Position numbers and translations under genes: made by a program. The notes under the pieces are model-generated. The model was not told the origin of the DNA, ran no database searches, and saw only the letters and a list, made by a program, of their open reading frames with translations. This document shows positions 1 through 20,890 of a DNA stretch of 64,000 nucleotides, piece after piece. The DNA is from Candidatus Bilamarchaeaceae archaeon (GTDB lineage: Archaea > Micrarchaeota > Micrarchaeia > Anstonellales > Bilamarchaeaceae), in the NCBI GenBank assembly GCA_038870635.1, contig JAVZJR010000002.1, forward strand, positions 66,792 through 130,791. The letters run 5' to 3'. Each line of letters starts with the position of its first letter. Position 1 is the first letter of the stretch.

Positions 1-3000
1 GCAGCAGACGTGCAAAATATTTCTATTATAAATTGTATTATAGGAAATTTCTCTTCTTCTATTATTCTATCAAATGTAAATCATTCTCTATTCAGGAACA
101 ATACATTATATAAGTCTACACATGGTATGCTGATTGATCCATCCTATAACAATACGATAATAGAGAACACTATTTTCGGCAATTCGCAGTATGGTCTTTA
201 TCTTGATGATTCACACAATAATACGATAAGGTACAACATATTTGAAAATAACACAGATAGTGGTTTAAGACTTAATCGTTCAACTAGCAACTTAATTTCT
301 AACAACTCTTTCTATAATAATACAATTGCAATATATCTGGGGATGGGAAGCAATTCAAATAACATAACAGAAAATAATATATCGGTTGGTTCAGATTTAG
401 TTTTATCTTACGAATCCAACAACAACAGGATAATCTCTAATAGAATTTATAATACAGACAGAACCCTCGTGCGTTTAGAATATTCAAATAACACAATAGT
501 TGAAAATAACTCATTAAGCATTTCAAATATGAAATGTCTCTATTTGTATATAACTAATCAGATTACTATTAGGAACAATACTATTATGAATTGTAGCGAG
601 GAGGGCATCTACTTAAGTTTGCCTAATAATTCTGTTATAGATAATAACCATATATTTAATACATCAAATGGTATTTATACTTATTATGCTGAATGGAGCA
701 ATTTTACTAATAATGAAATACATAATAATTCAGTGACAGCAGTCTACTTTGATTTCTCAAAATACCTTATTGTTAGTAACTCAAAAATGTATTACAACAA
801 CTATGGCATTTATTCCTATAATACTTCAAATCTGTCTCTGTTTAATTCAAATCTTTCAAACAATGTTTATAGCGGAGTTGAATTAAGATACAACAATAAT
901 GTAAGTGTTTCAGATAATAATATTAATTCTTCAACAAATGGGATTTTCTTGTATTATACTTCATCTAGTTCTATATCAAACAATTCTATTAGTTCTTCAA
1001 CAGGTATACTCTCCCAGTATTCATATAATAACTTAGTTAAAGAAAATAATATAACCTCATCAAATAATGGTATATCAATCGTACTGTCTAATCATACTAA
1101 TTTTTCAAATAACATCGTATGTAACAACGGAGGTATAGGTTTGAGATTAGCGTATACTAATCAAGTTGTTTCATTTAATGATACTTTTTGTAACAGCGGT
1201 AGCGGCATAGAGGTATATAATTCAAACAATACTAATCTAAATAACACACATCTATACGGGAATGTTTACTTTGAATTACTTATAAGTAGCGATAGTTTTG
1301 CTGTTTATAATTTGACCACTACGAACTTAACCATAGATAACCCAGTAGGCAATTATGAAAACTATACAATATTAGATATTGAAGATATGTACGGTAATCT
1401 TACTTCAGAAGAATCTTATGGAATAAGATGGTCCTCTCAACCTGCTACTTTGCCTAATGATAGGATGAGTTTTAGAAACAAATACGTAAACATTACACAA
1501 GAAGGAGGGGCGGTAAATATTGATAAGATAAGTTGGAGATGGTTTGATAGTGAGTTAAATGGTTATAACGAGAACATGTTTGAACTTTGGAAATACAACA
1601 CATCCGGTTGGGTTAGATTAAATAATACGCCAGATACTGTTAATAATCGACTATCCTTTGTAAATATGAATCCGCTAAGTACGTACGCCATATTACAAAA
1701 TAATAATTGTCCTCTGATAACTTCTGCTGGTTTATACACACAAAACCAAAACTATAGCGGGGCCCCCAACAATGCAGCACCATTAAGCGGGTATGCTTGT
1801 GTAAAAATTACTTCTTCAAACGTTGTATTTGATTGTAATGGCTATTCCATATCAAATAATGGTACGGGTGGTACAACGTATGGTATATTAATTAACGGTT
1901 CTTTGAATAATATAACAATAAAAAATTGTGAAATATCTAGTTATAGATATGGTGTTTTTGTTTATAATTCTAATAATACAAATATCTTTAATAACACTGT
2001 TAAAAATAGTATTGATTACAACATATATATTTATATCGCTCAAGGGGGCTTATTAAATAATAACACATTATATAATAGTACTCGTGGCTTTTATCTATAT
2101 TCCGTTAATGCTTCTGAAATATACAACAATATTATATTTAATCATTCAGCTATTGGTTTTTATGGTAATTCTATAACAAACAATAAAATATATAATAATT
2201 CTATTTATTCAAACACAATCTCAAATTTAATGCTTGATTCAAACTCACAGAATAATTATGTGCTGGATAATTTAATTTATAATAGTAGTCTGAGTCTTTA
2301 TATTTACTCAAGTGATAATAATACTGTTCTAAACAATAGCGCTTACAATTCGGAATATGGCGGTTACATCTATACCTCTAATTACAACAATTTGACTAAT
2401 AACTATTTTTACAATAACGTAGCGGGTTTATTTTTAACTGATTCGCAAGGTACTTACATTTCAGATAATATAGTTTATAATAACTATTATGGTTTTGATT
2501 TTGAAGATTCTGGCAGTGCCTTCAATTATATAAATAACAACACAGTATATAACAATACGATTGGTTGTTTATTATATTCGGTAAGCGGCTTCAAATTTAC
2601 TGATAATGAATTTTATAAAAATACAATCGGCATAGAATTTTCTTCATCAATTTTTAATGATTTACTAAATAACAAGTTTTATAATAACTCACAATATGGG
2701 GTTGATATAAGCTATACTTCATACCTAAATCTAACACAATCTGAAGTGTATAATAATGCTGTTGGCATATTAGTTTATGTTTCAGCTTATGTTCTTATCA
2801 ATAACACCCATTCATATAACAACGAACAACTAGATCTTTTAGTCAGCGCTGACGATAATATATTTTATAATCTTAGCATCTCTAATTTTACTCTTGACAA
2901 TCCTTTAGGCAATTATGAAAACTACACAATATTAGATATCGAAGATATATACGGTAATCTTACTTCAGAAGAAGCTTATGGAATAAGATGGTCCTCTCAA

Positions 3001-6000
3001 CCTGCTACTTTGCCTAATGATAGGATGAGTTTTAGAAACAAATACGTAAACATTACACAAGAAGGAGGGGCGGTAAATATTGATAAGATAAGTTGGGTAT
3101 GGGTCGAGAGTGAATTATCAGGCTATAATGAGAGTAATTTTGAGTTATGGAAATATAACTCTTCCGGGTGGTCATTACTCAATAATACCCCAAACACTAT
3201 TACCAACCGTCTTTCGCTTACAAATCTTAATCCATTATCAACATATGCAATTCTACAAAATTTAGAAATGGAAAACTGTCCAGTGATAATTTCTCCAGGT
3301 ACATATATACAAAATAAAAACTATACCGGTGCACCCAACCCAGTATGGAGTTATGGTGGTTATGCTTGCGTTTACATACAGGCCGAGAATGTAACATTTG
3401 ATTGTAATGGCTATTCTATAATAAACAATGGCACGTCGAACTCGTACGGTATTTTTATAGATGAAACGTCAAGCAATATAACAATAAAGAATTGTAATGT
3501 ATCAAATTATACCTATGGGTTGCTTGGTTACAGTAACGTAAACATCGCTGCATTTAATAACACATTACATTCTAATGAAGTAAGTGGTTTTGCAGCTGAT
3601 GCTACATCAAACATAACTGTTATCAATAATACTATTTATAATAATACTTACTATGGCGTGTACATAATTTCTGGTGCAACAGCGAATTTTGAAAATACTC
3701 TTCTTTATAACAATTTAGAAGATGGAGTATTCGTTGATAACTTTAACAATGTATTTGTAAATAATGTTACATCAAAAGATACGTATGGTGATTGCTTTTT
3801 ATTTACGAACTCAGAAAATATATCTATACATAATATTTCTGCTTCTAATTGTAGTGATGCTGGTGCTTATGGCGGCGGAGTGAAAAATGTTACTATTTCT
3901 AATTCTTCGATAATGCTGTCATCTTACGGTGTATACCTATTCAGTTCACAGAAGATTAACACTAGCGGAAATCAAATTTATAATTTGTCCACGAATAGTT
4001 TTTATGCTATAAACTCTAAAGAAATTTTTATCTTAGATAATTCGATTGTAGATGCTTCCAATGGCATCTACTGGCAAAATGTAACCAACGGTAGTATAAA
4101 AAACAATTACGCGTTTAATTCTTCTTCTTTTTCTAATATTTATTACGCTACCTTTATAAACTTGAATAATAATACATTAAAAAACATTTCTAATAACATA
4201 ATATTTTTATATTCTAATCTATCGAACATCACTCTTAATAACATATATTGTAGAAATACTGCAGGAACTTACGGTCTGTCTGTATCAAACGGATTCGGCT
4301 TTAATGTTGTTGATAACTTTATTATTGGTTGTACTAGTTATGGCATATCATTTTCTGGTGTAGAAAACTCACAGATTAGAAGTAATAATATAAGTGGTGG
4401 CAGCTCTTTAGTATACTTGCAAAGTTCAAATAATAATCTATCTGTAGTAAACAACATTTTGCAAAATTCTATAAATAATGGTTTGATTACAGTTTCTTTA
4501 ACTAATTCTACAATAGAGAACAATACTATATATAATGTTAGTTATTATGCACTCTACTTAACTTCCTCCTCTAATTATAATTTGATTTCATCTAATAAGA
4601 TATATTCGAATAGAAGAGGAATATACAATATATATGTTGATTTCTGTAACTTCACCAATAATGAAATCTATAATAGTTCTGAATATTTGGTATATTCTTC
4701 GTCGTCAAACAACAATCGTTTTATTAATAATTCTATGTACAATAGCACTTCATACGGTGTTCATTTATACAATTCTCAATTCTTTAACTTTACCCATAAC
4801 ACAATCTATGGGACATCAAACCGTGCTTTTACTCTGCAATCTAGTTCAAATAATACGTTATCTAATAACGACATAAAAAGAATTTCTCAAGTGGCGGTTT
4901 ATTTGTACGCTAACTCTAGTGATAATCTATTTATCGATAATACCATTCACGATAACACTAACTACGCTTTTTACGTTTATCAAAATTCAGTTAACAACAC
5001 ATTTTACAATAACACATTATTCAACAATTCTTATGGATTTTTTATACTGAACTCAAACTTCCAGAACATAGATCATTGTAATATATATAATAATACTCAA
5101 ATAGGTGTTCAATTTTCTAATTCAAATTATAGCATTATTAGTAATTCTATGATTTATAACAATACAAATCATGGCGTATCAATTGGTAGTTCTAGTAACA
5201 TAATTATTACAAACACAACTATCCATAACCATAATTATCACGGAATAGTGTTGTCATCATCTGATTATAACAACATAACAAACAATACGGTGTACAACAA
5301 TAATTGGCATGGTATCTACGTGCAGTTTTCCAACAATACTGTTATTGTTAATAATACAATATACAAAAACTCGCAAAATGGTATATACTTAACAAGCAGT
5401 CACAATGCAATAATTTCTGATAACAATGTCACCAATAATAGTGTTTATGGTATATTCTTTTCTTCATCCAATTTAAACACAATGTCTGATAATTACGTAT
5501 GTTTCAACACCCTTGACATAAATAACTCCGGAAGCAGTAATATAGGTGCATATGACAGATGTGATAAATGGTATAATTGGTTTGAGAATAGTCATCCCGG
5601 TTGTACTTTCACATGCTCTAAGATATGGCACAGGTTCTTTGGCAATGTGAGCGGTAATATCCTTCTTGCTCCAAATGAAACATCGATTTTCTATAACTGG
5701 ACATGGAATACAAATAAGGGAAAAGTCTATGTTATAAACGGAGATGCTGTAATTGACTGGGCAGCTGTTTTTGCATTGGGCAGAAATATATCTGAACAAA
5801 ACTCAACAAACGATTTTGCAGAATTAAATAACTTACTTAATATGGGGGACGAATATGACAATCTCACTAATCTTTACTCTTATGATGGCAGTAATCCATT
5901 GATAACAAAGAATATTTCTGTTTATGGAAAAATGATTAATTTTATACCACTTGCAAATTCATCTTATCAAACCGCAGGGGTTCACTACACCGGCATAATG

Positions 6001-6174
6001 TGGGATTCATCGCAAGGAGGGCCTGAATTTAGTCAAGCCCAAAACCAAGATGTGATTTTTGTTAATGAGATCAACGGAAGTTATGACCCACAATATGATA
6101 TAAGAGTTCCAGCAGAGTTGGGTACGTACAAAGGAACAAGCGGTGTTGTTGAGTTTTGGTTAGAATTAGATTGA
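1..6174 (+). CDS. Giant secreted parallel beta-helix (PbH1/NosD-like) repeat surface protein; 5' end lies outside the window
   Basis: The frame is open from nt 1 (no stop upstream of the ORF-caller GTG at 10) to TGA 6172-6174. It encodes >2050 aa of ~22-residue N/S/T/Y/I-rich coils (e.g. NNTIYNNTYYGVYI) typical of right-handed beta-helix repeats. A recurring cap motif is present: CP.I.S.G.Y.QN.NY.GAPN..ACV.I...V.FDCNGYSI.NNG. Family call by eye. Confidence 0.8.
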   Translation, partial: AADVQNISIINCIIGNFSSSIILSNVNHSLFRNNTLYKSTHGMLIDPSYNNTIIENTIFGNSQYGLYLDDSHNNTIRYNIFENNTDSGLRLNRSTSNLISNNSFYNNTIAIYLGMGSNSNNITENNISVGSDLVLSYESNNNRIISNRIYNTDRTLVRLEYSNNTIVENNSLSISNMKCLYLYITNQITIRNNTIMNCSEEGIYLSLPNNSVIDNNHIFNTSNGIYTYYAEWSNFTNNEIHNNSVTAVYFDFSKYLIVSNSKMYYNNYGIYSYNTSNLSLFNSNLSNNVYSGVELRYNNNVSVSDNNINSSTNGIFLYYTSSSSISNNSISSSTGILSQYSYNNLVKENNITSSNNGISIVLSNHTNFSNNIVCNNGGIGLRLAYTNQVVSFNDTFCNSGSGIEVYNSNNTNLNNTHLYGNVYFELLISSDSFAVYNLTTTNLTIDNPVGNYENYTILDIEDMYGNLTSEESYGIRWSSQPATLPNDRMSFRNKYVNITQEGGAVNIDKISWRWFDSELNGYNENMFELWKYNTSGWVRLNNTPDTVNNRLSFVNMNPLSTYAILQNNNCPLITSAGLYTQNQNYSGAPNNAAPLSGYACVKITSSNVVFDCNGYSISNNGTGGTTYGILINGSLNNITIKNCEISSYRYGVFVYNSNNTNIFNNTVKNSIDYNIYIYIAQGGLLNNNTLYNSTRGFYLYSVNASEIYNNIIFNHSAIGFYGNSITNNKIYNNSIYSNTISNLMLDSNSQNNYVLDNLIYNSSLSLYIYSSDNNTVLNNSAYNSEYGGYIYTSNYNNLTNNYFYNNVAGLFLTDSQGTYISDNIVYNNYYGFDFEDSGSAFNYINNNTVYNNTIGCLLYSVSGFKFTDNEFYKNTIGIEFSSSIFNDLLNNKFYNNSQYGVDISYTSYLNLTQSEVYNNAVGILVYVSAYVLINNTHSYNNEQLDLLVSADDNIFYNLSISNFTLDNPLGNYENYTILDIEDIYGNLTSEEAYGIRWSSQPATLPNDRMSFRNKYVNITQEGGAVNIDKISWVWVESELSGYNESNFELWKYNSSGWSLLNNTPNTITNRLSLTNLNPLSTYAILQNLEMENCPVIISPGTYIQNKNYTGAPNPVWSYGGYACVYIQAENVTFDCNGYSIINNGTSNSYGIFIDETSSNITIKNCNVSNYTYGLLGYSNVNIAAFNNTLHSNEVSGFAADATSNITVINNTIYNNTYYGVYIISGATANFENTLLYNNLEDGVFVDNFNNVFVNNVTSKDTYGDCFLFTNSENISIHNISASNCSDAGAYGGGVKNVTISNSSIMLSSYGVYLFSSQKINTSGNQIYNLSTNSFYAINSKEIFILDNSIVDASNGIYWQNVTNGSIKNNYAFNSSSFSNIYYATFINLNNNTLKNISNNIIFLYSNLSNITLNNIYCRNTAGTYGLSVSNGFGFNVVDNFIIGCTSYGISFSGVENSQIRSNNISGGSSLVYLQSSNNNLSVVNNILQNSINNGLITVSLTNSTIENNTIYNVSYYALYLTSSSNYNLISSNKIYSNRRGIYNIYVDFCNFTNNEIYNSSEYLVYSSSSNNNRFINNSMYNSTSYGVHLYNSQFFNFTHNTIYGTSNRAFTLQSSSNNTLSNNDIKRISQVAVYLYANSSDNLFIDNTIHDNTNYAFYVYQNSVNNTFYNNTLFNNSYGFFILNSNFQNIDHCNIYNNTQIGVQFSNSNYSIISNSMIYNNTNHGVSIGSSSNIIITNTTIHNHNYHGIVLSSSDYNNITNNTVYNNNWHGIYVQFSNNTVIVNNTIYKNSQNGIYLTSSHNAIISDNNVTNNSVYGIFFSSSNLNTMSDNYVCFNTLDINNSGSSNIGAYDRCDKWYNWFENSHPGCTFTCSKIWHRFFGNVSGNILLAPNETSIFYNWTWNTNKGKVYVINGDAVIDWAAVFALGRNISEQNSTNDFAELNNLLNMGDEYDNLTNLYSYDGSNPLITKNISVYGKMINFIPLANSSYQTAGVHYTGIMWDSSQGGPEFSQAQNQDVIFVNEINGSYDPQYDIRVPAELGTYKGTSGVVEFWLELD
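1347..1536 (+). repeat. Intragenic repeat copy A (partner 2907-3096, offset 1560 bp)
   Basis: Hand alignment gives 190 bp with 4 mismatches (1365, 1380, 1389, 1414). This includes a 122-bp perfect run, 1415-1536 = 2975-3096. Flanking sequence is only loosely similar. Confidence 0.9.
2907..3096 (+). repeat. Intragenic repeat copy B (partner 1347-1536)
   Basis: Same alignment as copy A. Both copies encode ...GNYENYTILDIED.YGNLTSEE.YGIRWSSQPATLPNDRMSFRNKYVNITQEGGAVNIDKISW... Confidence 0.9.
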
Positions 6175-6227
6175 AGAGCGATACATAATTTTAGTTTTAC
6201 AAAAATAAAAAAATAAAAATTTTAGGT

Positions 6228-6887
6228 TTACGCCAATTCCAACCAGAAGTAGTATGTTTCTGTTGCGCCTAAGGCTGCATTTGTTGCAGTAAGTAATTCG
6301 TAATCGCCATTTTGGCCATTAAATAAGGGTACGTTGTTTTGTATTGTTGTACAGAACGCAACATCGCTTTTTGCAGCTGGTGTGTCACTATCTGCAATTG
6401 CACATGTTGTTAATGAACCACCAGTTGTTGTACCTACACTGTTTGTTACGGATTGATTATTGACTACTATGTTGCATGAAGTAGTGAGTGTGTTTGCTGC
6501 ATTATCTGTCGCTGTGCCAAAACCCCAAATAGTATCAACTGCAGTTGCTGTTATCGGCTTAAGATTTGTCCAATCAAAACCAGTTTGTGCAGCTACTGCG
6601 CACACTACTCCTCCGTTTGCAGGTGACCAAGACCACGAGTAAAATATAGCTGTGGTGTTTGGTGCAAGCACAATGTTTCCTGCCACATCACCCCAGAAAC
6701 CTGCCCACTTTTCTGTGGATACATTACCAGTTAGGTTTAACTGAGTGACATTACCGCCCTCTGTTGTGACGTTGGCATGTGTTAATGGTTCGTATCTACC
6801 GATTTGCCCAACTGTCCACGTTTCGGCCGGTTGAATGGCAAAAGCATAAGCCATTACCAACGACAAAATCAAAAAAATTTTTTTCAT
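6228..6887 (-). CDS. Small secreted protein consisting of the unassigned ~180-aa W-G-F-W-G domain (paralog of the C-terminus of the giant protein)
   Basis: N-terminal signal-like MKKIFLILSLVMAYAFA. KWAGFWGDVAGNIVLAPNTTAIFYSWSW aligns with IWHRFFGNVSGNILLAPNETSIFYNWTW of the 1-6174 protein. Both end in FWLEL[AD]. The gene is visibly more GC-rich and A/T/G-rich than its neighbours. Confidence 0.75.
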   Translation of the reverse strand: MKKIFLILSLVMAYAFAIQPAETWTVGQIGRYEPLTHANVTTEGGNVTQLNLTGNVSTEKWAGFWGDVAGNIVLAPNTTAIFYSWSWSPANGGVVCAVAAQTGFDWTNLKPITATAVDTIWGFGTATDNAANTLTTSCNIVVNNQSVTNSVGTTTGGSLTTCAIADSDTPAAKSDVAFCTTIQNNVPLFNGQNGDYELLTATNAALGATETYYFWLELA

Positions 6888-6986
6888 ACTATATCACCAC
6901 GTTTTTCGAAAAACCAAAAAAACATCTCCTGATAAATTTATAAATGTTGTTTTTGCTTATTAATGTTGTCTAAGTAGAGGGAGTTT

Positions 6987-10797: not shown

Positions 10798-10830
10798 TTA
10801 ATTGTTTAGTCTAGTGCGGCAGTATATATT

Positions 10831-13800: not shown

Positions 13801-13977
13801 TGCTTTATCATTGTCTGGAAAACCTGGTAGTTCATTTGGTGCTCCTACAAGATTGGAAGTAAGTATATAAGTTTCACCTTCTTGAGTAAGGTTAGAACAG
13901 CTATCAACGAGTATGTCCGCGAAACTTACACTGATCATTAACCCAATAAATAAGATATATTTACTATAGCTTGTCAT
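10831..13977 (-). CDS. Secreted beta-helix (PbH1/NosD-like) surface protein with beta-sandwich, Cys-rich modules and C-terminal TM anchor
   Basis: 1048 aa. Signal-like MTSYSKYILFIGLMISVSFA. Cap motif CIKITASQITLDCNGKTITYNG. About 20 coils of type NNTIYNN. Cys-rich block at aa ~778-940. C-terminal tail AIIWIVIVGGILAISFILWNKFVKPPR. Confidence 0.8.
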   Translation of the reverse strand: MTSYSKYILFIGLMISVSFADILVDSCSNLTQEGETYILTSNLVGAPNELPGFPDNDKACIKITASQITLDCNGKTITYNGDGATPTHGISLLSVSNVTIKNCAAILNYTYGIRIENSQYNQILNTTVYNTTYGIYLISSSDNIITNNTVHNNTYGFGAIGGFNNTFSKNFVYYNGDGFFLGGSTHTNTLSENLIYNTSRGIHVSFSSKNNITLNEIYDNYWGIYLDNANENNFSNNKIYRNNKCFELYKSSNNLLTHNQIYDNIFYGIKLNEESNQNIILSNTIYDALQTAIDITSSNDTEIKENNIYGSNFGILLKFSNNHTIQTNSLNNNTVGLEMIGITNTTVSQNIIYSNEVSIVLIASNNNSILDNEIYDNSDTAVISESSSNNFFSNNSVYNATEGFVLISTNNSFFSNNSIYNIADIAFSLYTSSNNTLDKNIIYKNYYGLVISGYSSNNTISNNTIYNNDGIGIQIDEPADNNTLIQNTIHSNEESGVLILGKTTTLFASNTIYKNKISGVTLEDGSVLFIQKDHYYNNSYDFIVKNNVGSLILTLQNVIFDAPDGKLSLRNYANISLNTTLKKKYSFFINWSENPSGTPPTGYALFGKSIRIGKYYPAYLLIIDSITFSWNPSEVSGYNPSSLEVWLNNETDWIEKASNQTINTTAKSITINNFANESILTILGRKQLIESSKSKSEYCSRKVKINYTIDCLNDILIIKLIDETNNKLIDNEYILISHGKYNIERLKSNDSGEILYKLPSTLDTILYNLEFEGRGYYCPAKEEFNYTSCHGCKSNQECNEKEYCYIENEKTKGVCKLIECSCGEIVDHKCIQYQCCTDSDCIESNFYCDAKEHICKEKKECIDNTQCSESMYCDLTTNKCKLIEKGKCGYIANHSWKDYECCEDSDCKGEYKIVGKEKEFIGNIYKFTLVGPYCENHICHLGPLAKRDVLLESSSGERKILQTSENGEGQFVVEKEEYKISYIINNGPIRSTLTIKSLAKEKEETSLPTTQEKLKQSNYLDAIIWIVIVGGILAISFILWNKFVKPPR

Positions 13978-14014
13978 AATACCATCTTTAGCAAAAAATT
14001 TAAATAGTTATTCT

Positions 14015-14863
14015 TTAACTCCATTTGCATTTTCCTTCGATACATCTGCAAACAACGCCATAAGTTGTTGGCCTATAGCAATCTTTCCATTCGCAGCTTG
14101 ACATAATTATGCCTTCTGATTTTGATTGGCATATCTGCGAGTTACAACCGCCGTGTGTGCAATCGCTATCAGTGGTGCACGGTCCTTCTGTTGACCATCC
14201 ACAAAAATCTTCCTTTGGTTTCTCTTCTTTATCTACACATTTAACTATTGTTGGGAATGATGTTGATAAGATACACTTTTTATCAGACGGACATAACTCG
14301 CATGGGTCGCCTGAATAGCATCTAGGTTTAGCATATCCGGGTAACCTATAACAATCCGCTCCTCTTGGGCAGTCTTTTATTGAATTGCATTCCGGGCCAA
14401 CTTTTGATTCGCTCTGAGCTTCTTTCTTTACAATTTTACATTGGTGGTTAACACACTTAGTTTCAAACATACCTCCTATGCCTGTACAGTAATCCGGGCA
14501 TTGTTTCTCTACATTTACAAAATTTTTCGAACCAACAAAACACTCACCTGTTTTTATGTGAGTGCCACAAGCACAATCTGCATCATTTGCGCAATAGTTT
14601 GGTTTTTCAGGTGAGCATTCCCCTCTTTGGTATGCCCATTCCTCACATTTAGCACCATTTGAGAATTCGCAAACTCCATACTCTCCGCTTGCTTCTTGGA
14701 CTATATTTAATCTTCCGCCATGGTTGATACAGAATTCCGAGGCAGGATTTGAGATAGTCGTGTCATTGCCTTTTTGGTCTTCGTTTTTAGAGTTTAGTTC
14801 TGGCATTATACATCCAAACATCAAGATAAAGCTTAAAATTAAAATTATTTTTATCATTTTCAT
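14015..14863 (-). CDS. Secreted Cys-rich protein with N-terminal DUF333-like domain (lipobox-like signal)
   Basis: MKMIKIILILSFILMFGC signal/lipobox-like. NPASEFCINHGGRLNIV..GVCEFSNGAKCEEWAYQRGEC matches the DUF333 pattern as I remember it. 31 Cys in 282 aa by my count. Confidence 0.65.
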   Translation of the reverse strand: MKMIKIILILSFILMFGCIMPELNSKNEDQKGNDTTISNPASEFCINHGGRLNIVQEASGEYGVCEFSNGAKCEEWAYQRGECSPEKPNYCANDADCACGTHIKTGECFVGSKNFVNVEKQCPDYCTGIGGMFETKCVNHQCKIVKKEAQSESKVGPECNSIKDCPRGADCYRLPGYAKPRCYSGDPCELCPSDKKCILSTSFPTIVKCVDKEEKPKEDFCGWSTEGPCTTDSDCTHGGCNSQICQSKSEGIIMSSCEWKDCYRPTTYGVVCRCIEGKCKWS

Positions 14864-14915: not shown

Positions 14916-15814
14916 ATGAAAATAGGTTATCCTTGCATAAACACCAGCATAGGTTGTACTGCAAATTCTACATTTAGACTAAAAAACTACTCAGAAGAAA
15001 ATATGGTAGAGAAAATAAATAACAACCTCGATTGTCTTGAAAAGATCCTCAATTATAATGTTGAAAAAGGATTTTTGTTTTTTAGAATTAGTTCAGATTT
15101 GGTTCCATTTGCAAGTCACCCCATCTGTACTTTTAATTGGAGAGGTTATTTCAAAAAAAGATTTAGGGAAATGGTAAATTCATAAAAGAAAACGAGATTA
15201 GGATATCAATGCACCTAGATCAATTCGTGCTTATAAATGCAACCAAAAAGGCCATTATAGATAGTAGTATCGCAGAATTAAAATGGCATTGTGATGTTTT
15301 GGATTTGATGAATTTAGATAACAGCGCAAAAGTTCAGATACATGTGGGTGGTGTTTACGGCGATAAAGAAAGTGCCATAAGCCGTTTTATACAAAACTAC
15401 AAAGCTTTGTCGCATAACATAAAGAAAAGACTTGTTATTGAAAATGACGATAGAAATTTCTCATTGAGGGATTGTCTAAAAATAAGTGAAAACGTAGGGG
15501 TACCAGTTCTTTTTGATTCTTTTCACCACGAATGCCTAAACAATGGAGAGAAAGTGTGCGACGCCATTAAACTTCCTAGCGAGACGTGGAAAAATGAAGA
15601 TGGCATACTTATGGTTGATTACAGTTCGCAGGAGCCAAATCAACGGGTAGGAAAACATGCTGAACACATAGATTTAAACCATTTTAAAAATTTCTTAAAC
15701 TCTACAAAAAGATTTGATTTTGATATAATGCTTGAAATTAAAGATAAAGAGACAAGTGCAATAGAAGCCATTCAAGTCTTAAAAAAACTAAATATCGACA
15801 AAAAAGCGAACTAA
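14916..15814 (+). pseudogene. uvdE: UV damage endonuclease UvdE, interrupted by a frameshift
   Basis: ORFs 14916-15185 and 15209-15814 together give a UvdE-like protein (RISSDLVPFASHP ... GGVYGDKESAISRF ... VIENDD ... FDSFHH). The second frame is already open from 15167 and reads GNGKFIKENEIRISMHLDQF. A 1-nt frame change must therefore lie between 15167 and 15185. Confidence 0.7.
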
Positions 15815-15844: not shown

Positions 15845-16303
15845 ATGAAAATTAAATTGCTCTTTCTTATTGGATTGCTGCTCGTAGACGTTTTATTTGC
15901 TGGATGTGCCTATGATGGATATTCAACTGCATGTAAAGCTTGTAAATTCAGCGATAATGGGAAAATTGACCAAGCATGTATGAAAGATTTGAAGGAAAGA
16001 AGCCTGATTTGTATAAGCGGTAAATACCCTATAATGAGTGCAAAATATTCATTGGGTCAATGTCCTGGCGTTGACGCCTGTACCTCGCAATTGTCTGCGT
16101 GTATATCTAAAAGTTCAACAGGTAATGATGAAAAAGATTGCAAAAGTGGTGTGGTTGCTGACTGCTATTACGAAGCTGATGAGTGTATACACAAAGTTGC
16201 ATTAGAGTGCGGCGATCAGCCTGCGAGTTCATCTTGTGCGCTTCCCGTAATATTAATGACAGTTGTTTTATGCTTAGGTCTATACTTTGGTATTACAAGA
16301 TAA
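15845..16303 (+). CDS. Small secreted Cys-rich protein with C-terminal Cys-TM-basic tail
   Basis: Signal/lipobox-like MKIKLLFLIGLLLVDVLFAGC. Many Cys. Tail SSSCALPVILMTVVLCLGLYFGITR. Confidence 0.6.
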   Translation: MKIKLLFLIGLLLVDVLFAGCAYDGYSTACKACKFSDNGKIDQACMKDLKERSLICISGKYPIMSAKYSLGQCPGVDACTSQLSACISKSSTGNDEKDCKSGVVADCYYEADECIHKVALECGDQPASSSCALPVILMTVVLCLGLYFGITR

Positions 16304-16324: not shown

Positions 16325-17845
16325 GTTTTTTGCATTGGTTCTCATCGTCAATACCTTTTTTCATACATAAACGAAGCGTATCAGTGTGGGGGTTTGCCAA
16401 AAGGCAGCCACGAACGAGAGTATGATTGCATAATGGTTGGTGGATGTCTTAGAAATGCAACTATCTCTATACGCTTGGAAACAAATGTTACGGCAAATAT
16501 GATGATTCTAACTTTTGCCCAAAAGTAGTTTGCAGCGGCACGACAATAAAGAAAAACTGTAGATGTGATTCTGTTACAGGAAATTGTGTTTATGATGAAG
16601 GTTATTGCAAGTTGGGTGTAACGCCGATGGCACAGACTGTGCATTAGAAAAACCAGTAAAACCAAAGCAAACCTATCAAAAAGGCGATGAGGTATTGTGG
16701 GGAAGGAGTATCATTACTGTGGTACTGCTGCGGGTGAGAATTGTGCAACTTGTAGTTTTGACTGCAAATGCGATGCGGGTTATGTATGCGACCCAACTTC
16801 TGCGAATGCAAATTATATGGGTTGTGTTAGAGTAGAAGAGAAAAAAGAAGAGAACGCGATGGTATGCGGTGGCAAAGTATGCAAAATGTTTTGCCTTAAG
16901 GATTATAGATATGATATAAAAACCGGCCAGTGGGTCCCTGCTGATTACTCTATGATTCCGGTGAGATGTAGCGAAGGTGTGCAGTGTACTTATGCACCAG
17001 CGATGTACTGCAAAACAGGGTGTAATAGCAACACGGGCAAATGCTTGCCTGATGATGCGAGCGCAGATGGATGCATAGAGGATGGCGAGTACATTATTCA
17101 GTCAGCTTCTGGAAAATTGCCAGTAAAACGCGCAATAAACAAGGACGGCTCTTCTGAAATTACAATATTGCAGCTAGTGAGTCATGCTAAGCACTGTGTT
17201 GGAGATTACATATCAACAGATGCAGAGACAAAGGTGTGGATAAAACACAAGAACGGTATGATCTCTTATATAGGTCCAGGTTCGCAGTACGTTGATGGAT
17301 CTCGGGGCAAGAATGTTGTTGAAGCAAAAGGAAAGATACAAATTAAAAATCCAGGTGCACCTACTGAGGAAGAAAAAGGTATCGTTACAGTAGTTCCTCT
17401 TCAAATTGCTGCTGAAATACAGGAAGGCGCTGATTATGGAACTGTTTCCCATATTCACCATGACTTGAGGGATTTCTATATAAAGAATACTCTAAAAGGC
17501 GGCCCCATTGATATATGGGTATACAACCAACACTCCAATGTGATATATGATATATACGATGATCATGAAATCGTGACCGTGCTTGAAGGAGAGGTAGTGG
17601 TAACTGACTCTAAGACAAAACAGCAATTTTCACTGACCGCAGGAAAGCAACTAACTCACGAGCTCGGACAAGAGATTCAGCCAAACATGCAACAAAACAT
17701 AGAGGATGTTGATTTAAGTAGGATGGAGGATAACTCAACACCTCCAGAAGGTAGTGTAAGCGCTAATGGGGGCGTTTGCACAATTGGGTTGTTTATGATT
17801 TTACTTCTAATCAGTCTTTATATAATAAAAGGAAGGGTTGATTAG
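16325..17845 (+). pseudogene. Cys-rich membrane-anchored protein with a frame-scrambled 5' region (intact part 16697-17845)
   Basis: Cys-rich coding-like signal runs in frame 2 (16325-16525). It continues in frame 1 (16453-16644, ..KCYGKYDDSNFCPKVVCSG..CRCDSVTGNCVYDEGYCK..) and then frame 0 (16605 onward, CNADGTDCALEKP..). It ends in frame 2 again (GTG 16697, GKEYHYCGTAAGENCATC...). No signal peptide was found. The C-terminal tail is GGVCTIGLFMILLLISLYIIKGRVD. Confidence 0.5.
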
Positions 17846-17856: not shown

Positions 17857-18144
17857 TTACTTTTTTATTAAAATGAGAAATAGCAAAGTTCCTAATATAA
17901 GAGCGCCTATCTTACAGACTATCGGATTTTTGATATCGCTCTTATCAATGTGCCCTGAGTATTTGTGAATGGTTTCAGCAGTGCAGTTTGATACGCATTC
18001 TTCATAACCTGCTTGCGGTTTCCAGCACCTGTCCCATTCCTTATCCCATTTGCCCTTGTAATCCTTGCAGCATTGCACCTCGCAATTTGTGCCTGCAAAA
18101 AGAAGGCCGCCAAGCGTCAAGAGCGTAAATATCATCTTAAGCAT
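17857..18144 (-). CDS. Small secreted Cys-rich protein with C-terminal Cys-TM-basic tail
   Basis: MLKMIFTLLTLGGLLFAG signal-like. Contains CEVQCCKDYKGKWDKEWDRCW. Tail NPIVCKIGALILGTLLFLILIKK. Confidence 0.6.
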   Translation of the reverse strand: MLKMIFTLLTLGGLLFAGTNCEVQCCKDYKGKWDKEWDRCWKPQAGYEECVSNCTAETIHKYSGHIDKSDIKNPIVCKIGALILGTLLFLILIKK

Positions 18145-18169
18145 CTAACCACCTTTCTTATCCAAAACT

Positions 18170-20890
18170 TCAACCATTACTTAAACTTAGCCCAAAAAGT
18201 TGCTTGGCCAAGTCAAACAAGTAATTGAAAACCCCTTTAAAGAAATTCAGCACCTGCTCGATAAATCCGGTTTTTTGGCCACTTCCTCCTGATATTGTTG
18301 ATGACTGTGATTCTACAATAGATGAAAGAGCATAAAAGTTAAGTTTCCCGCTTTTGTATTCTGCAACGTAAATGCCAGTTTCAGTTGCTTCCATCCCTAT
18401 GGGCATGAGCTGTGAAGTTTTATTTATATCTATCTTTGTGTAATTAACAACTTGGTACATCTCAATACCCATAGGATCCCGCCACTCAACTATATATTTA
18501 CTACCAGGGGAAAGCGAGACTCCATTTAAGTCTTTCTGTAAATATCCTCTTAATCTGCCATTTTCGTAAAAGAGGATTTTATTGTATTTCCATGCAACAA
18601 ACTTGTTTTCATCAGCATATGAACCAAGAACAATCTCGTCATTATATTGTATGCCATCATTATCCCGTTGGCCGATATACCGTAATATTTGATGGGCGGG
18701 AGAGTTTAGTGTATAAATACATGAAAATGTATTGCATTCGCCTATAACTCGATTTCTTGATACATCTAATCTTCTTATAATTGTGTTATGTGTTTCTCCG
18801 TTGCAATCGTTCTCAGAACTTAGGAGGCATTCGTCGATATAGCCGTAGCCGGGCGCATAAAATTTACCAGAAGATGTTATAATATCAAGCAACGGAGTTG
18901 CTGATGAATCAGTTAGGCTTTCAGCATATTCTGGCCATTCCCAAATCTCAATTACATTTCCGTTTTGATCAAAGAGATATCCTTTAGGTGTTGTATCTCC
19001 TCTTTTCGCATTTTTTCTCGCCGCGATACCTGCATACAATCGCGAACCATCATACGCAGGTATAAGAGTTGACGCTTGCTTACCCAAGCACATACTATTC
19101 GTCTTATAGGCGTATAATTGATTACCATTCGAGAGGTCATATGCATATATTTTACAGAATAAATCTGTGCTATCTACTGTTAAAACATATGCGTACTTTC
19201 CATTCTTGCTGAACTTAACAACATGTGGTATTTCATTCTGATAAGTTTTTGACCATAAAAGATTAGGCTGTGAAAGTGGCGTGTAATCATCTACAGAATC
19301 TGGTTGTAAGCATTTTATTTCATGTGGTGGTATTTTGATATCAAAAGCATTTTCACTTATCGTAAAATTCTTTATAAGCGCAGTGCAATTTGATGAGGTT
19401 ATTACAATTATACCGTTTGTACCTTTTATTGGTGCGCTTATTACTTCTTTAGCAGTTTCTTCACTGGTGCCGTTAATCTTGCCATACTCTCCTCGATACT
19501 GTCCTTTATCTGTTAGAATATTATACCATCCGCTCGATGGATACCCAACATAGATATTTTTAGGCTTTTCAACGAGTACAAAATCTACGTAGTTATATAT
19601 GTCATGGACATAAGTTATATCGCTATTATTGTAAACGAAATTGATGGTTGTTGAGTTATCAACATATCCATTTTTATGAGCAGTTAGTTTATACTTTCCC
19701 TCTGTCGTAAATGGCCGTAAGTGTCTGAAAGTATACGAACCATCTGCGCGTGTAAGTACTGGTGTTTTACCATTATCTATGTAAACACTTGCGTTTGGGA
19801 TTGGGTTGCCGACTTCATCAACAACTTTCCCTTCAACAATAAGGAATTGGGGATTTACATACACGACCACATAATCAATTAAATTATTATCTACGTCTGT
19901 TATTTCTATTCTAACGTAATCCGGATATGCATCTAAACAGTGAACTTCTGTACTGAAAGTTATAGTCTCGTTGGCGTTAATCGCGAAATCATTGTATGAA
20001 TATTTTTGGTTTCCCAAGTAATAATTTATATAGTAATTGCCTGGCAACTCGCCACGGTTTGTTACGTTGACTTTTATTTCGAATCTATTCGTATGCGGCT
20101 CAATGCGTTTCACTACTGTAGAGCCATCAAAAAATACATCTGGTGGTAGCGGCAAATCGTTAACAATTAATTTATAAGTGTTGTATGACGAATACTCGTC
20201 ATTGTCATCTGCTTCTACCACATTTGGATCTGAAGGCTGAACAACAACTTTTACAACATTAAACATGTCTTTCTCGTGCTCCCAGGGTATGCTGAAGCTC
20301 TTTTCATACCAACAATTTGGATACGGAACATAAGCAGGATTGTAGGGCGTTATGCACTTTAATTTTTCAGTATGTATTAGCTTCATATTGGGCGGGTCGA
20401 GGTTGATTCTATCATCATACCCTGCATAAATGTAAACATCAGCGCTATCTATATAAGCAAAACCTGCATTGATTACGCGGACATATAGTCTTTTTTCTTT
20501 CTCAATATATTTTACAGTGTCACTCGCAACAACCAAATCAGGTGCAAATGCTTTATCATCTCTTGCGCACTCTTCCTTACAACTTTTTATAATAGGTACA
20601 ATGTAAGCATTGATATCGTGTGCACATTGGAGTGATTTCATAACCGTCATAAAATCCGGTCCACGTGTTACATAGCTCGCCCACGCATTTATAATATCCA
20701 AAAACATATCTTTTGTACCGTACGAGCACCATTTAGTTATGAAGACATATGCTGGATTTTGTCTCCAAGCCAAAGTATACGCAGCGCATTGTGAAACACA
20801 AACCTCGGTTTGGTTTACTGCATTTTCAGCATAAAAAGACCCTAAAAACACGATCATTAACAAAAGAGTTTTCAAAACTTTGATTTCCAT
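18170..20890 (-). CDS. Large secreted protein with CarboxypepD_reg-like domain and probable C-terminal beta-propeller-like region
   Basis: 906 aa. Signal-like MEIKVLKTLLLMIVFLGSFYA. VEGKVVDEVGNPIPNASVYIDNGKTPVLTRADGSYTF..YKLTAHKNGY is the CarboxypepD_reg pattern. The propeller call is weak. Confidence 0.65.
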   Translation of the reverse strand: MEIKVLKTLLLMIVFLGSFYAENAVNQTEVCVSQCAAYTLAWRQNPAYVFITKWCSYGTKDMFLDIINAWASYVTRGPDFMTVMKSLQCAHDINAYIVPIIKSCKEECARDDKAFAPDLVVASDTVKYIEKEKRLYVRVINAGFAYIDSADVYIYAGYDDRINLDPPNMKLIHTEKLKCITPYNPAYVPYPNCWYEKSFSIPWEHEKDMFNVVKVVVQPSDPNVVEADDNDEYSSYNTYKLIVNDLPLPPDVFFDGSTVVKRIEPHTNRFEIKVNVTNRGELPGNYYINYYLGNQKYSYNDFAINANETITFSTEVHCLDAYPDYVRIEITDVDNNLIDYVVVYVNPQFLIVEGKVVDEVGNPIPNASVYIDNGKTPVLTRADGSYTFRHLRPFTTEGKYKLTAHKNGYVDNSTTINFVYNNSDITYVHDIYNYVDFVLVEKPKNIYVGYPSSGWYNILTDKGQYRGEYGKINGTSEETAKEVISAPIKGTNGIIVITSSNCTALIKNFTISENAFDIKIPPHEIKCLQPDSVDDYTPLSQPNLLWSKTYQNEIPHVVKFSKNGKYAYVLTVDSTDLFCKIYAYDLSNGNQLYAYKTNSMCLGKQASTLIPAYDGSRLYAGIAARKNAKRGDTTPKGYLFDQNGNVIEIWEWPEYAESLTDSSATPLLDIITSSGKFYAPGYGYIDECLLSSENDCNGETHNTIIRRLDVSRNRVIGECNTFSCIYTLNSPAHQILRYIGQRDNDGIQYNDEIVLGSYADENKFVAWKYNKILFYENGRLRGYLQKDLNGVSLSPGSKYIVEWRDPMGIEMYQVVNYTKIDINKTSQLMPIGMEATETGIYVAEYKSGKLNFYALSSIVESQSSTISGGSGQKTGFIEQVLNFFKGVFNYLFDLAKQLFGLSLSNG

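Follow-up and report, generated by a model that had tools for sequence, protein, structure and literature searches.

The first 20,890 nucleotides of a 64,000-nucleotide stretch of DNA (hereafter the window) from the Micrarchaeota (DPANN) genome of a tiny symbiotic archaeon, near-identical proteins of which carry the name Candidatus Bilamarchaeaceae, encode almost only surface proteins. This region is not a single unit: it combines a conserved cassette, made of a giant gene (g1) and the triad g2-g3-g4, with the lineage-specific genes g6-g10. We favor, with moderate confidence for the whole, docking explanation included, a view of it as a chromosomal neighborhood of cell-envelope genes in two layers, where the triad probably holds giant adhesins at the cell surface. 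A preliminary description had proposed an adhesion toolkit in a small-genome archaeon; the DPANN organism and the adhesin-type content agree with this, but the genes do not form one unit, g6-g10 being separate.

Gene content of the region

The ten open reading frames of the preliminary description were all present where it had placed them. Signal peptides and transmembrane (TM) segments were judged by hydropathy heuristics only. By this measure, N-terminal signal-like segments are found in g2, g3, g4, g5, g6, g7, g9, and g10, and C-terminal TM anchors in g3, g4 (three TMs), g5, g7, g8, and g9. Since only 2 of the 38 ORFs in the rest of the window encode non-polytopic secreted proteins, the claimed extracytoplasmic enrichment is real, even if g1 is cut by the window and g8 lacks a signal peptide. 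The content is overwhelmingly cell-surface and this, together with domains of adhesin type, namely the beta-helix within the window and, among relatives, Laminin_G_3 and F5/8-C, makes surface adhesion the most reasonable role. The sole exception, as first described, is uvdE (14916..15814, forward strand), a cytoplasmic DNA-repair pseudogene outside the surface set. What remains are two fragments, of 89 aa and 201 aa, that both match PF03851 (L003); frame analysis indicates that the reading frame must change twice close to an A7 run for them to be joined.

Four modules are shared with statistical support: the beta-helix, a ~125-aa post-helix module, the WGFWG domain, and CarboxypepD_reg. The idea that all ten proteins draw on common building blocks held for only five of them (g1, g2, g4, g5, and g10). 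Cys-rich knots, previously listed as shared by six proteins, turned out to be a compositional class: compared with shuffled sequences, the only homology is between g4 and g5 (z = 8.5), g6 is marginal (z about 3), and g7, g8, and g9 give none.

The giant protein g1 and the beta-helix protein g5

The part of g1 present in the window (1..6174, forward strand) encodes the final 2057 residues of a giant surface protein of 3211 aa; the window start cuts the gene, leaving its N-terminus outside. The complete protein is found in sister MAGs (full-length gene at L001:10714-20349, Peptidase_S8 3e-32), where an N-terminal hydrophobic anchor, an acidic linker, and a Peptidase_S8 (subtilase) domain, with the motifs D-T-G, H-G-T, and G-T-S readable in the translation, precede the portion seen here. 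That portion contains three right-handed beta-helix blocks (Pfam Beta_helix 2.5e-133, NosD 5.4e-114). Two copies of the ~125-aa module were confirmed in g1 and one in g5 (jackhmmer E 1e-34 to 1e-55). The g1 copies, both also supported by alignment, lie at aa 441-567 (1321..1701, forward strand; jackhmmer 3e-55) and aa 962-1087 (2884..3261, forward strand), and overlap a 300-nt DNA repeat (1304-1603 and 2864-3163, 86 % identity, spacing 1560 nt). At its extreme C-terminus g1 carries a g2-like (WGFWG) domain (5617..6171, forward strand; 45 % identity to g2 by BLASTP, 3.6e-10; g2-family HMM E 1.2e-13). This copy begins at profile position ~58, lacking the first ~55 positions and the TEGGN segment, and, being truncated, may behave differently from the full domain.

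The 1048-aa adhesin-like protein g5 (10831..13977, reverse strand) is the second beta-helix protein, again as anticipated (Pfam Beta_helix 3.7e-54). It consists of a signal peptide, the beta-helix (nt 12343-13890), the post-helix module (nt 11938-12309; module match 4e-34), a Cys-rich block (nt 11158-11646) with homology to the one in g4 (BLASTP 4e-11), and a C-terminal TM, all encoded on the reverse strand.

The g2-g3-g4 triad

g2 (6228..6887, reverse strand) is a stand-alone secreted 219-aa WGFWG-domain protein, and its 78 homologues share 50-64 % identity with it. The signal peptide is of the AXA type, the N-terminus of the mature protein is conserved (IQPAE..W), and the motif TEGGNxT is invariant. 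Judged by sequence, it is the founding member of a domain family common to g1, g2, and g4, in line with the three occurrences noted earlier, and this family numbers 1284 cluster representatives. The AF2 monomer model is a beta-sandwich (pLDDT 80). No relatives of the family were found in Pfam, NCBIfam, PDB, or BFVD; the fold has no solved or viral structural neighbor, so that known families offer no mechanism to carry over to it. TEGGNxT, the most conserved motif, falls in the only low-confidence part of the model, which would suit a surface that contacts a partner or a glycan.

Three forms of the g2-like domain exist: it may stand alone, sit at the very C-terminus of beta-helix/lectin proteins of 400-5600 aa, or form the mature N-terminus of membrane-anchored stalks. 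Among the best 150 matches listed, the matched stretch in proteins >300 aa always ends a few residues from the C-terminus. In the scanned loci the domain is at the extreme C-terminus of 29 proteins and at the N-terminus of 27, and in these 27 it starts at TEGGN, immediately behind the point where the signal peptide is cleaved; 13 of the 16 N-class proteins inspected also have a TM at or close to the C-terminus. Proteins with the C-terminal form have adhesin- or lectin-type heads (Beta_helix, Laminin_G_3, F5/8-C, Sialidase-N). We infer that the g2-like domain serves all of these proteins as a common docking or assembly unit, tethering exchangeable giant adhesins.

The conserved partner of g2 is g3 (6987..8636, forward strand), a 549-aa protein with 49 homologues and a confident AF2 model (pLDDT 89). 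A signal peptide is followed by three alpha/beta units, two Ig-like beta-sandwiches, and a C-terminal TM, with no Cys at all. Weak Pfam matches in the family are to CW_binding_2 (7/49) and CARDB (4/49). Its invariant columns are Asp, Asn, Ser, Tyr, Gly, Phe, Ile, Gln, and Pro, without His, Cys, Lys, or Glu, which argues for a binding or scaffold role over catalysis.

g4 (8596..10683, reverse strand) is a 695-aa membrane-anchored stalk, delineated by hhalign, by Pfam on 14 orthologues, and by hydropathy for its TMs. The order is signal peptide, g2-like domain, beta-sandwich, Cys-rich block, CarboxypepD_reg region, and three C-terminal TMs. The g2-like domain (nt 10084-10626, reverse strand; HMM E 4.5e-6; hhalign probability 98.4 %, E 6e-15) lacks a ~21-aa N-terminal segment, a deletion visible in the hhalign alignment with the g2 domain. 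The Cys-rich block (nt 9409-9726, reverse strand) is DUF7107/Dickkopf-like according to Pfam on the orthologues. CarboxypepD_reg had been proposed for two proteins and is clear in g10; in g4 (nt 8944-9396, reverse strand) the sequence alone falls below the Pfam cut-off, but all 14 orthologues match (best 1.6e-9).

Conservation of the cassette

The cassette (giant gene plus g2-g3-g4) recurs in other genomes with differing housekeeping flanks. The synteny comparison suggested in the preliminary description, run as a GTDB genome scan, placed a stand-alone g2 at most 600 nt from g3 in 46 of 64 loci, with this adjacency found in Micrarchaeota, Woesearchaeota, Iainarchaeota, Nanohaloarchaea, and Methanosarcinales. 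Just 3 of the 38 g2 loci having at least 2.5 kb on both sides lack g3, and 28 loci also contain a third protein, which belongs to the N-terminal class. The triad genes form a co-directional operon in distant lineages, and on a Methanosarcinaceae chromosome the three stand alone amid unrelated genes. Because the free-living Methanosarcinales also carry the triad, the system cannot be symbiosis-specific. Genomes have one or two triads but several cargo genes (isolates co334_50 and USDE_metabat.57). The cultured Micrarchaeota A_DKE and ARM-1 are absent among the matches listed (80 of 81 confirmed in the genome scan).

Lineage-specific genes g6-g10

In relatives, g6-g10 are found in the Anstonellales clade only, either elsewhere in the genome or split off by RadA and SOD genes. 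g6 (14015..14863, reverse strand) encodes a Cys-rich protein of 282 aa (11 % Cys) that is either secreted or lipobox-like, and the suspected DUF333 was recovered by Pfam (3.3e-19); its C-terminal eight-cysteine-cluster domain scores 51.3 bits against TIGR04289 heavy_Cys (cut-off 50). The 152-aa Cys-rich g7 (15845..16303, forward strand) combines a signal resembling a lipobox (LFAGC) with a C-terminus made of Cys, a TM, and a basic end, without any family match in Pfam or NCBIfam. g8 (16697..17845, forward strand; 382 aa) has a Cys-rich N-terminal third and a C-terminal TM, the only hints of export as no signal peptide was found. Its frame opens just 2 codons upstream of the start, and g8 is either a tail-anchored protein or the product of a 5'-truncated gene. 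The 95-aa Cys-rich g9 (17857..18144, reverse strand) has, by hydropathy, a signal peptide and the same type of C-terminus as g7. The 906-aa secreted CarboxypepD_reg protein g10 (18170..20890, reverse strand; Pfam 5e-11) has only 4 homologues (43-100 % identity), confined to the Anstonellales clade. In relatives, a 95-aa gene (L094) or a 100-aa gene (L093), close to g9 in size, adjoins the g10 homologue.

Proposed model and alternatives

In the proposed model, layer 1 (window 1-13977 plus 3.5 kb upstream) is a conserved three-gene archaeal cassette with adjoining giant adhesin-like proteins, of which every part would be exported via Sec. Its genes encode a beta-sandwich protein of ~220 aa that is secreted and free (g2), a membrane-anchored scaffold of ~550 aa comprising three alpha/beta units and two Ig-like domains (g3), and a stalk anchored by C-terminal TM helices that presents a g2-like domain at its mature N-terminus (g4). 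This domain is the common currency, fused also to the extreme C-terminus of many large variable beta-helix/lectin/protease proteins (the cargo). The g2-like domains may associate with one another, as an oligomer or a short g2 polymer on the g4 stalk, and so hold giant adhesins or enzymes, g1 among them, on the cell surface in such a way that one can replace another. g3 might act as a non-enzymatic membrane scaffold or a glycan-binding partner, and the beta-helix heads and subtilase domain could contact, and possibly process, the partner-cell surface. Layer 2 (g6-g10) comprises small Cys-rich anchored proteins and a CarboxypepD_reg protein accreted beside the cassette in this lineage only. We give this two-layer view, with association of g2-like domains as the inferred surface tether, a slightly better than even chance. 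The cultured Micrarchaeon ARM-1 bears fibrous connections and thin filaments of unknown composition (PMC8784108; PMC11329633).

The g2-like domain could instead be a lectin or ligand-binding module for a partner-cell glycan or the cell's own S-layer, with neither self-association nor assembly; g2 would then be a secreted lectin, g4 a receptor-like stalk, and the cargo would have an extra binding domain added. We regard this as unlikely. The beta-sandwich fold of g2 fits, as do the non-significant top structural matches (viral lectin/knob domains and ConA-like proteins) and the several carbohydrate-binding domains already combined in cargo proteins. It leaves unexplained, however, the strict position of the domain (only the cargo extreme C-terminus or the anchor mature N-terminus) and the dedicated adjacent partner g3, and a domain that spans envelopes as unrelated as those of Micrarchaeota and Methanosarcinales argues against one external ligand.

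The genes might also have no joint function, being unrelated secreted proteins clustered by chance or regulation, with modules spread by ordinary domain shuffling. For g6-g10 the lack of synteny with the cassette in other lineages agrees with this, as do the absence of any detectable common module in g7, g8, and g9 and the use of both strands in convergent and divergent arrangements. The g2, g3, and g4 adjacency, kept across archaeal phyla and as an operon in distant lineages, speaks against it, and we consider it quite improbable. Horizontal acquisition as a genomic island is highly improbable and contradicted by the data. The region is AT- and Asn-richer, as had been claimed, with lower GC in 1-6000 and 10000-14000, but this is due to its Asn-rich proteins: the deficit sits at first codon positions (Asn, Ile, Tyr, and Ser codons), and without the two beta-helix genes GC is 0.370 versus 0.373 for the rest. 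GC3 is equal inside and outside (0.287 versus 0.295), so the region is not foreign; no integrase was found in it, the one tRNA of the window lies outside it (30470-30544), and the cassette is vertically conserved within the phylum (44-64 % identity).

Comparison with known systems

CGP-CTERM sorting signals consist of Cys, a TM helix, and a basic tail. The g6 C-terminus reaches the cut-off of the Thermococcales heavy-Cys model (TIGR04289; see also TIGR04292) and those of g7, g8, and g9 have the same layout, but the Cys-Gly-Pro motif is missing, NCBIfam sorting-signal models do not match g7, g8, or g9, and the organism is a DPANN archaeon, not a member of the Thermococcales. In the CWB2-anchored Cwp proteins of Clostridioides difficile and in cohesin-dockerin scaffolds, one terminal module fixes many proteins to a cell-bound partner. 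The common terminal module seen here, with CW_binding_2 in some g3 members, is an analogy only: no homology in sequence or structure was found, the CWB2 matches staying under the threshold and the g2 fold lacking any neighbor in PDB. The partner proposed here would also not be a wall polymer but a protein domain from the same family. Fibres built by donor-strand or subunit exchange include chaperone-usher pili, archaeal threads, bundling pili, and cannulae, and the tip adhesin FimH carries a pilin domain. By analogy only, the small secreted beta-sandwich g2 lies beside proteins with the same terminal domain, one domain class of which lacks the ~21-residue N-terminal segment. However, no pilin fold was matched in PDB, no chaperone, usher, sortase, or dedicated peptidase gene was found near the examined cassette loci, and polymerization is only putative.

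Closer relatives of the giant proteins are known. SPEARE proteins of Nanohaloarchaeota are giant DPANN surface proteins with serine protease and adhesion domains, proposed to act in host contact, and their defining conserved part is a type III restriction-enzyme domain that lies in the cytoplasm, following a TM helix close to the C-terminus (PMC6642349). Full-length g1 resembles them in combining Peptidase_S8 and beta-helix, and its relatives carry Laminin_G_3, but it has neither the restriction-enzyme domain nor its TM; g1 is anchored at its N-terminus and ends in a g2-like domain. The adhesin-like proteins (ALPs) of the methanogens Methanobrevibacter smithii and Methanosphaera stadtmanae are very long, Asn/Thr-rich, multicopy proteins with an N-terminal anchor and a right-handed beta-helix, some with CarboxypepD_reg; g1 and g5 fit this description (PMC11532034). 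The claim that no such system had been described thus fails for the giants, which are ordinary archaeal adhesin-like proteins, and stands for the triad, which appears undescribed: full-text literature searches and the Pfam, NCBIfam, and PDB libraries yielded neither it nor its domain family. ALPs are built with archaeal Big-domain repeats (PMC11532034), and neither a common docking domain at one terminus nor a conserved operon of partner genes has been reported for them. Unlike them, the cassette described here has the ~125-aa post-helix module, the C-terminal g2-like domain, and the g2-g3-g4 triad.

Gene content and composition of the surface block

An ORF check of the window located the ten surface-type genes and the split uvdE (14916-15814, +) where the preliminary description had placed them: g1 at 1-6174 (+), g2 at 6228-6887 (-), g3 at 6987-8636 (+), g4 at 8596-10683 (-), g5 at 10831-13977 (-), g6 at 14015-14863 (-), g7 at 15845-16303 (+), g8 at 16697-17845 (+), g9 at 17857-18144 (-) and g10 at 18170-20890 (-). 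The window outside this block is ordinary archaeal core genome, with an A-type ATPase operon, genes for the ribosomal proteins L10P and L15e, MetRS, FtsY, a UbiA prenyltransferase and one tRNA-Glu, the only RNA gene found in the window. The block region is matched exactly in several NCBI MAGs and Logan assemblies, and proteins almost identical to those encoded here carry the names Candidatus Bilamarchaeaceae, Anstonellales and Micrarchaeota. The lineage (Archaea; Nanobdellati (DPANN); Microcaldota; Micrarchaeia; Anstonellales) bears out the suggestion of a small-genome archaeon. Sister contigs carry g1, cut at the window edge, as a complete gene of 3211 aa with the gene for ribosomal protein L3 next upstream, so the surface block spans ~24.4 kb and is bounded by L3 and an ArsR/ArsP pair. 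A small cluster for transport or metal handling adjoins it at 20972-27142, with genes for an ArsR regulator, an ArsP-type permease, a pair of ABC-2 transporters and a P-type cation ATPase.

The block had been called an AT-rich island. GC is indeed low over 1-6000 and 10000-14000, yet the difference vanishes at synonymous sites, with a GC3 of 0.287 in the block and 0.295 outside (GC1 0.369 vs 0.482), and the block without its two beta-helix genes has a GC of 0.370 against 0.373 outside. The skew is therefore caused by Asn (11.8 vs 4.4%), Tyr and Ser codons, with no sign of foreign DNA. With GC3 alike inside and outside, no integrase found and a cassette (g2-g3-g4 plus a giant gene) conserved through the phylum, a horizontally acquired genomic island was rejected: the AT-richness stands as low GC in the two intervals but not as compositional foreignness, and codon-position GC leaves the island label unsupported.

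Export features

All ten proteins had been proposed to be extracytoplasmic. Signal peptides and TM segments were called from hydropathy alone, and on this basis nine of the ten have a signal-like N-terminal segment (seen for g1 only in the full-length gene) and six have C-terminal TM anchors. The exception is g8, which has no signal peptide: its open frame reaches only two codons upstream of the GTG start, no signal-like ORF was found in the 393-nt upstream gap, and the protein is either tail-anchored or 5'-truncated. The concentration of exported proteins in the block is real, since only 2 of the 38 ORFs in the other 43 kb encode non-polytopic exported proteins (SIMPL and an S-layer protein). 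The signals of g6 and g7 end in lipobox-like sequences (...FGC and ...AGC, respectively), NxS/T sequons in g1 reach 5-6 per 100 aa, and the Cys content of g4-g9 is 3-11% vs 0.8% in the remaining window. A 369-aa protein encoded at 58258-59367 (+) has a signal-like N-terminus, ~7 TM segments and a region weakly resembling thioredoxin that contains a CPHC motif (Pfam E 0.007-0.045, under the cut-offs), making it a possible candidate for an extracytoplasmic disulfide-forming enzyme. Such an enzyme, if confirmed, would suit the many Cys-rich exported proteins nearby.

Conservation and gene order of the triad

We regard as the main new result the conserved triad of g2 (219 aa, a stand-alone copy of the unassigned WGFWG domain), g3 (549 aa) and g4 (695 aa, a membrane-anchored stalk), together with the terminal domain family to which g2 belongs. 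The conservation of the triad, its architecture rules and its domain homologies are direct observations. The 78 word-indexed homologues of g2 are nearly all ~220 aa long (outliers 182 and 294 aa), most being 50-64% identical, and the 49 homologues of g3 are nearly all ~550 aa, mostly with 46-57% identity. Distant Micrarchaeota keep the order g2, g3, g4 and giant beta-helix protein (2400-4700 aa), while the cassette flanks vary (EF-1a with ribosomal proteins, IF2, or a Mur ligase), and the triad genes are co-directional in distant lineages. In the window, g3 and g4 are convergent and their 3' ends share 41 nt (8596-8636), an arrangement also present in near-identical sister MAGs.

A scan of one genome per GTDB species gave 81 confirmed matches, with 80 loci listed. 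The listed loci are mostly from Micrarchaeota, the others belonging to Woesearchaeota/Nanoarchaeota, Iainarchaeota, Nanohaloarchaea, one Nitrosotalea MAG and six Methanosarcinales contigs; the cultured Micrarchaeota ARM-1 and A_DKE are missing from the 81 confirmed matches. Stand-alone g2 lies within 600 nt of g3 in 46 of 64 loci, g3 is absent from only 3 of the 38 loci with sufficient flank on both sides, and 28 loci include a third gene whose product carries a g2-like domain at its N-terminus. The g2-g3 pair and a third protein with the domain were seen in Methanosarcinaceae, Methanosarcinales and Methanoperedens MAGs (L054:9764-13331; L046, L070, L075, L080, L090), the domain of the third protein being at the C-terminus, not the N-terminus, in L054 and L046. 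On a 1.1-Mb Methanosarcinaceae contig, the triad is a lone operon flanked by histidine-kinase genes. The triad neighborhoods examined contain no gene for an assembly ATPase, a chaperone/usher, a sortase or a dedicated peptidase. Full-text literature searches on Micrarchaeota and their S-layer, Anstonellales, SPEARE, DPANN surface and beta-helix proteins and archaeal adhesin-like proteins turned up neither the triad nor the g2 family.

Forms and predicted structures of the triad proteins

An exhaustive HMM search with the g2 profile returned 1284 cluster representatives, and the best 150 of these show two architectures only: stand-alone (181-282 aa, mostly 215-260) or at the extreme C-terminus of proteins of 350-5626 aa. 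The heads of ten such large proteins sampled contain Beta_helix/NosD, Laminin_G_3, F5/8-C or Sialidase-N domains, and those bearing names are all from Micrarchaeota. The stand-alone form has an AXA signal peptide and a conserved mature N-terminus (IQPAE.W.VG..GKY), followed by an invariant T-E-G-G-N-x-T. The anchor form, the g4 class, begins at TEGGN immediately after the signal cleavage, so that ~21 residues of the N-terminal segment are missing; 13 of the 16 inspected have a TM helix and basic tail at the end. The form carried by large proteins keeps an equivalent of this segment (..ANVTN.T...R[YFW]) and runs to the last residue of the protein; giants adjoining the triad, including g1, have a shortened domain starting from about profile position 58.

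The AF2 model of g2 is an all-beta sandwich (pLDDT 80, pTM 0.76) whose sole low-confidence part, residues 33-55, contains the invariant motif. The fold has no significant neighbor (best Foldseek E 2.2 in PDB and 0.12 in BFVD), and no significant sequence relative was found in PDB with the profile or in Pfam with all 49 members. At g2 aa 42-58 (window ~6714-6764, minus strand), the invariant T-E-G-G-N-x-T and a nearly invariant N55-x-S form two conserved N-glycosylation sequons; as these lie in the low-confidence segment of the model, this is a plausible, putative site of glycosylation or partner binding.

In the AF2 model of g3 (pLDDT 89), three alpha/beta units and then two beta-sandwiches lie between the signal peptide and a TM helix. 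Foldseek retrieved only Ig-like barrels in tandem, of a generic kind and belonging to transglutaminases (E 4e-9, TM ~0.13), and the g3 profile had no match among PDB sequences. CWB2 cell-wall-binding repeats (PF04122), sought as three tandem copies, matched 7 of the 49 family members weakly (best 0.0017), and some members gave weak CARDB matches. Only Asp, Asn, Ser, Tyr, Gly, Phe, Ile, Gln and Pro occur at invariant positions of g3; His, Cys, Lys and Glu are absent from this set, which suggests a role in binding rather than catalysis.

Architecture of the giant proteins

The complete g1 starts with an N-terminal hydrophobic anchor (aa 8-26 by hydropathy) and an acidic low-complexity stretch, followed by a Peptidase_S8 domain (3e-32; T7SS-mycosin-like in NCBIfam, 7e-28) with readable D-T-G, H-G-T and G-T-S motifs, ~600 aa with no domain assignment, and the 2057 aa inside the window. 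Both g1 and g5 pass the cut-offs for a right-handed parallel beta-helix (PF13229/PF05048/TIGR03804), with 440 and 379 bits for Beta_helix and NosD in g1, 183 and 152 bits in g5, and 128 and 132 bits, respectively, for TIGR03804 (Pfam Beta_helix E 2.5e-133 for g1 and 3.7e-54 for g5). The NosD copper-protein maturation factor model TIGR04247 gave 138 (g1) and 91 (g5) bits against a cut-off of 300, and the two proteins have only the repeat fold in common with that factor. The ~125-aa unit that follows the helix is present twice in g1 and once in g5, and a 300-nt direct repeat in g1 (1304-1603 and 2864-3163, 86% identity, spacing 1560 nt) marks an internal duplication of 1560 nt comprising one beta-helix block and one such module. 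The post-helix module recurs one to three times in ~20 further giants of Micrarchaeota and Iainarchaeota; it has no Pfam or PDB relative and, by hhalign, no relation to g3.

Module sharing and Cys-rich blocks

The preliminary description saw one shuffled set of modules throughout the ten proteins, including Cys-rich knots in six; shared modules could be demonstrated in five of the ten, and a single set for all ten is not supported. The WGFWG domain makes up the whole of g2 and is found at the C-terminus of g1 (45% identity to g2 over 49 aa; HMM E 1e-13) and at the N-terminus of g4 (HMM E 4.5e-6; profile-profile probability 98.4%, E 6e-15 over 184 columns). CarboxypepD_reg (PF13620) passes its cut-off in g10 (43.2 bits, cut-off 32.3); g4 by itself gives a sub-threshold 19 bits and its orthologues match in 14 of 14 cases (best 1.6e-9). 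Homology of the Cys-rich blocks is clear between g4 and g5 (BLASTP 4e-11; z = 8.5 against shuffles), whose blocks match DUF7107/Dickkopf_N in 12 and 10 of 14 orthologues. In the same shuffle test, the Cys-rich block of g6 is marginal (z ~3) and those of g7, g8 and g9 match nothing, ruling out a single Cys-knot family across six proteins, g4 and g5 excepted. Sharing thus holds under alignment statistics for the beta-helix, the post-helix module, the WGFWG domain, CarboxypepD_reg and the g4-g5 Cys block, while the "Cys knots in six proteins" are a compositional class and not a family.

The g6-g10 genes and uvdE

DUF333 (PF03891) is found in g6 with 69.3 bits (cut-off 25), and aa 229-281 match the eight-cysteine cluster TIGR04289 at a borderline 51.3 bits (cut-off 50). 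The C-termini of g7 (SSSC-ALPVILM.., 16250-16303), g8 (GGVC-TIGLFMI.., 17770-17845) and g9 (PIVC-KIGALIL.., 17857-17930) consist of a Cys, a TM segment and a basic tail, and may represent a lineage-specific C-terminal sorting or lipidation signal. They look similar to the CGP-CTERM signal but differ from it in having neither the Cys-Gly-Pro motif, absent from all three, nor any NCBIfam sorting-signal match at E <= 0.1.

The 906-aa g10 has four homologues only, all in the Anstonellales clade, and in two of the three relatives examined a gene of 95-100 aa, like g9 in size and position, adjoins the g10 homologue. In one relative, ~3 kb containing RadA, an ankyrin protein, SOD and an unannotated gene separates the triad from this pair and from a g6-like gene; another has them on a different contig from the triad. 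No synteny of g6-g10 with the triad was found outside the Anstonellales clade, and none of these five genes is homologous to anything within 10 kb of g2 in other lineages. The block is thus a composite and its 21-kb contiguity lineage-specific.

The uvdE gene consists of ORFs of 89 and 201 aa, and joining them takes two frame changes that lie within ~40 nt of each other at an A7 run (15153-15159). The split recurs in a Logan assembly made independently (L003), so this is probably a real pseudogene and not an assembly error.

A possible display role for the triad

The observation in the preliminary description was largely right overall. Given the exported proteins and the adhesin-like giants, it was reasonable to read the region as a toolkit with which a DPANN archaeon equips its surface or adheres. 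Our hypothesis for docking and display, drawn from genomic architecture, is that the triad core could serve as a surface-display or fiber module, in which g4 would be a membrane-anchored stalk presenting its g2-like domain, g2 a free partner or subunit, g3 a membrane scaffold, and the large proteins ending in the domain the cargo. Three points suggest association between g2-like domains: they sit strictly at protein termini, the partnership of the genes is constant, and a genome has one or two triads vs several cargo genes; the resulting assembly might be a polymer, as in donor-strand fibers, or a small oligomer. As no ATPase, chaperone/usher, sortase or peptidase gene accompanies the triad, any assembly would be spontaneous after Sec export. 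We propose, tentatively and as somewhat short of an even chance, that the triad represents an undescribed archaeal surface organelle: a Sec-dependent, ATPase-free fiber or docking platform with a new beta-sandwich fold, distributed from DPANN to Methanosarcinales, that displays exchangeable giant adhesins and enzymes via a common terminal domain and serves host contact in DPANN.

For the recognition and attachment of DPANN archaea to their hosts, the region supplies a concrete cross-phylum candidate set: a ~220-aa secreted family (1284 cluster representatives) that lacks both annotation and structural relatives, the 550-aa protein that constantly accompanies it, a membrane stalk and the giants that end in the g2-like domain. 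Electron microscopy shows fibers and filaments on cultured Micrarchaeota; fibrous connections and thin filaments are reported for ARM-1 (PMC8784108; PMC11329633), whose absence from the confirmed matches of the scan leaves no link between them and the triad. If the g2-like domain docks or polymerizes, genomes of uncultured archaea could reveal their surface repertoires through the proteins that end in it. The Methanosarcinales MAGs with the triad would make an experimental test possible if a cultivable, genetically tractable carrier is found.

Comparison with known systems

Two known kinds of surface structure were considered for the block. For donor-strand pili (chaperone-usher, threads, bundling pili and cannulae), the g2 model gave no Foldseek PDB match at E < 2, and no chaperone, usher or sortase gene was found in the neighborhoods examined. 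The block is not an S-layer locus: S_layer_N and S_layer_C (PF05123/PF05124) have no Pfam match in g1-g10, and the S-layer gene is a separate ORF at 36200-38974 (+). Its 924-aa product has a signal peptide and S_layer_C (PF05124, 4.6e-10), has no module in common with the surface block, and by size and domain family appears to correspond to the Micrarchaeota S-layer protein SLP_Mh (bioRxiv 10.1101/2021.04.28.441871).

In the SPEARE proteins of Nanohaloarchaeota, the most conserved part is a type III restriction-endonuclease domain that lies in the cytoplasm, beyond a TM helix near the C-terminus (PMC6642349). Full-length g1 follows the same protease-plus-adhesin logic, with Peptidase_S8 (3e-32) and beta-helix in one giant, but has neither a restriction-enzyme domain in Pfam or NCBIfam nor a C-terminal TM segment. 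Archaeal adhesin-like proteins (ALPs) are long, Asn/Thr-rich and N-terminally anchored, with a right-handed beta-helix and Big-domain repeats (PMC11532034). These archaeal Big-domain (ABD) repeats set them apart from g1 and g5, which have no Big-type Pfam match at E <= 0.01. In the other features, g1 (3211 aa, 15% Asn, hydrophobic segment at aa 8-26, beta-helix) and g5 (12.5% Asn, signal peptide, beta-helix) agree with ALPs, and, judged by their sequences, the giants themselves are ordinary archaeal adhesin-like proteins.
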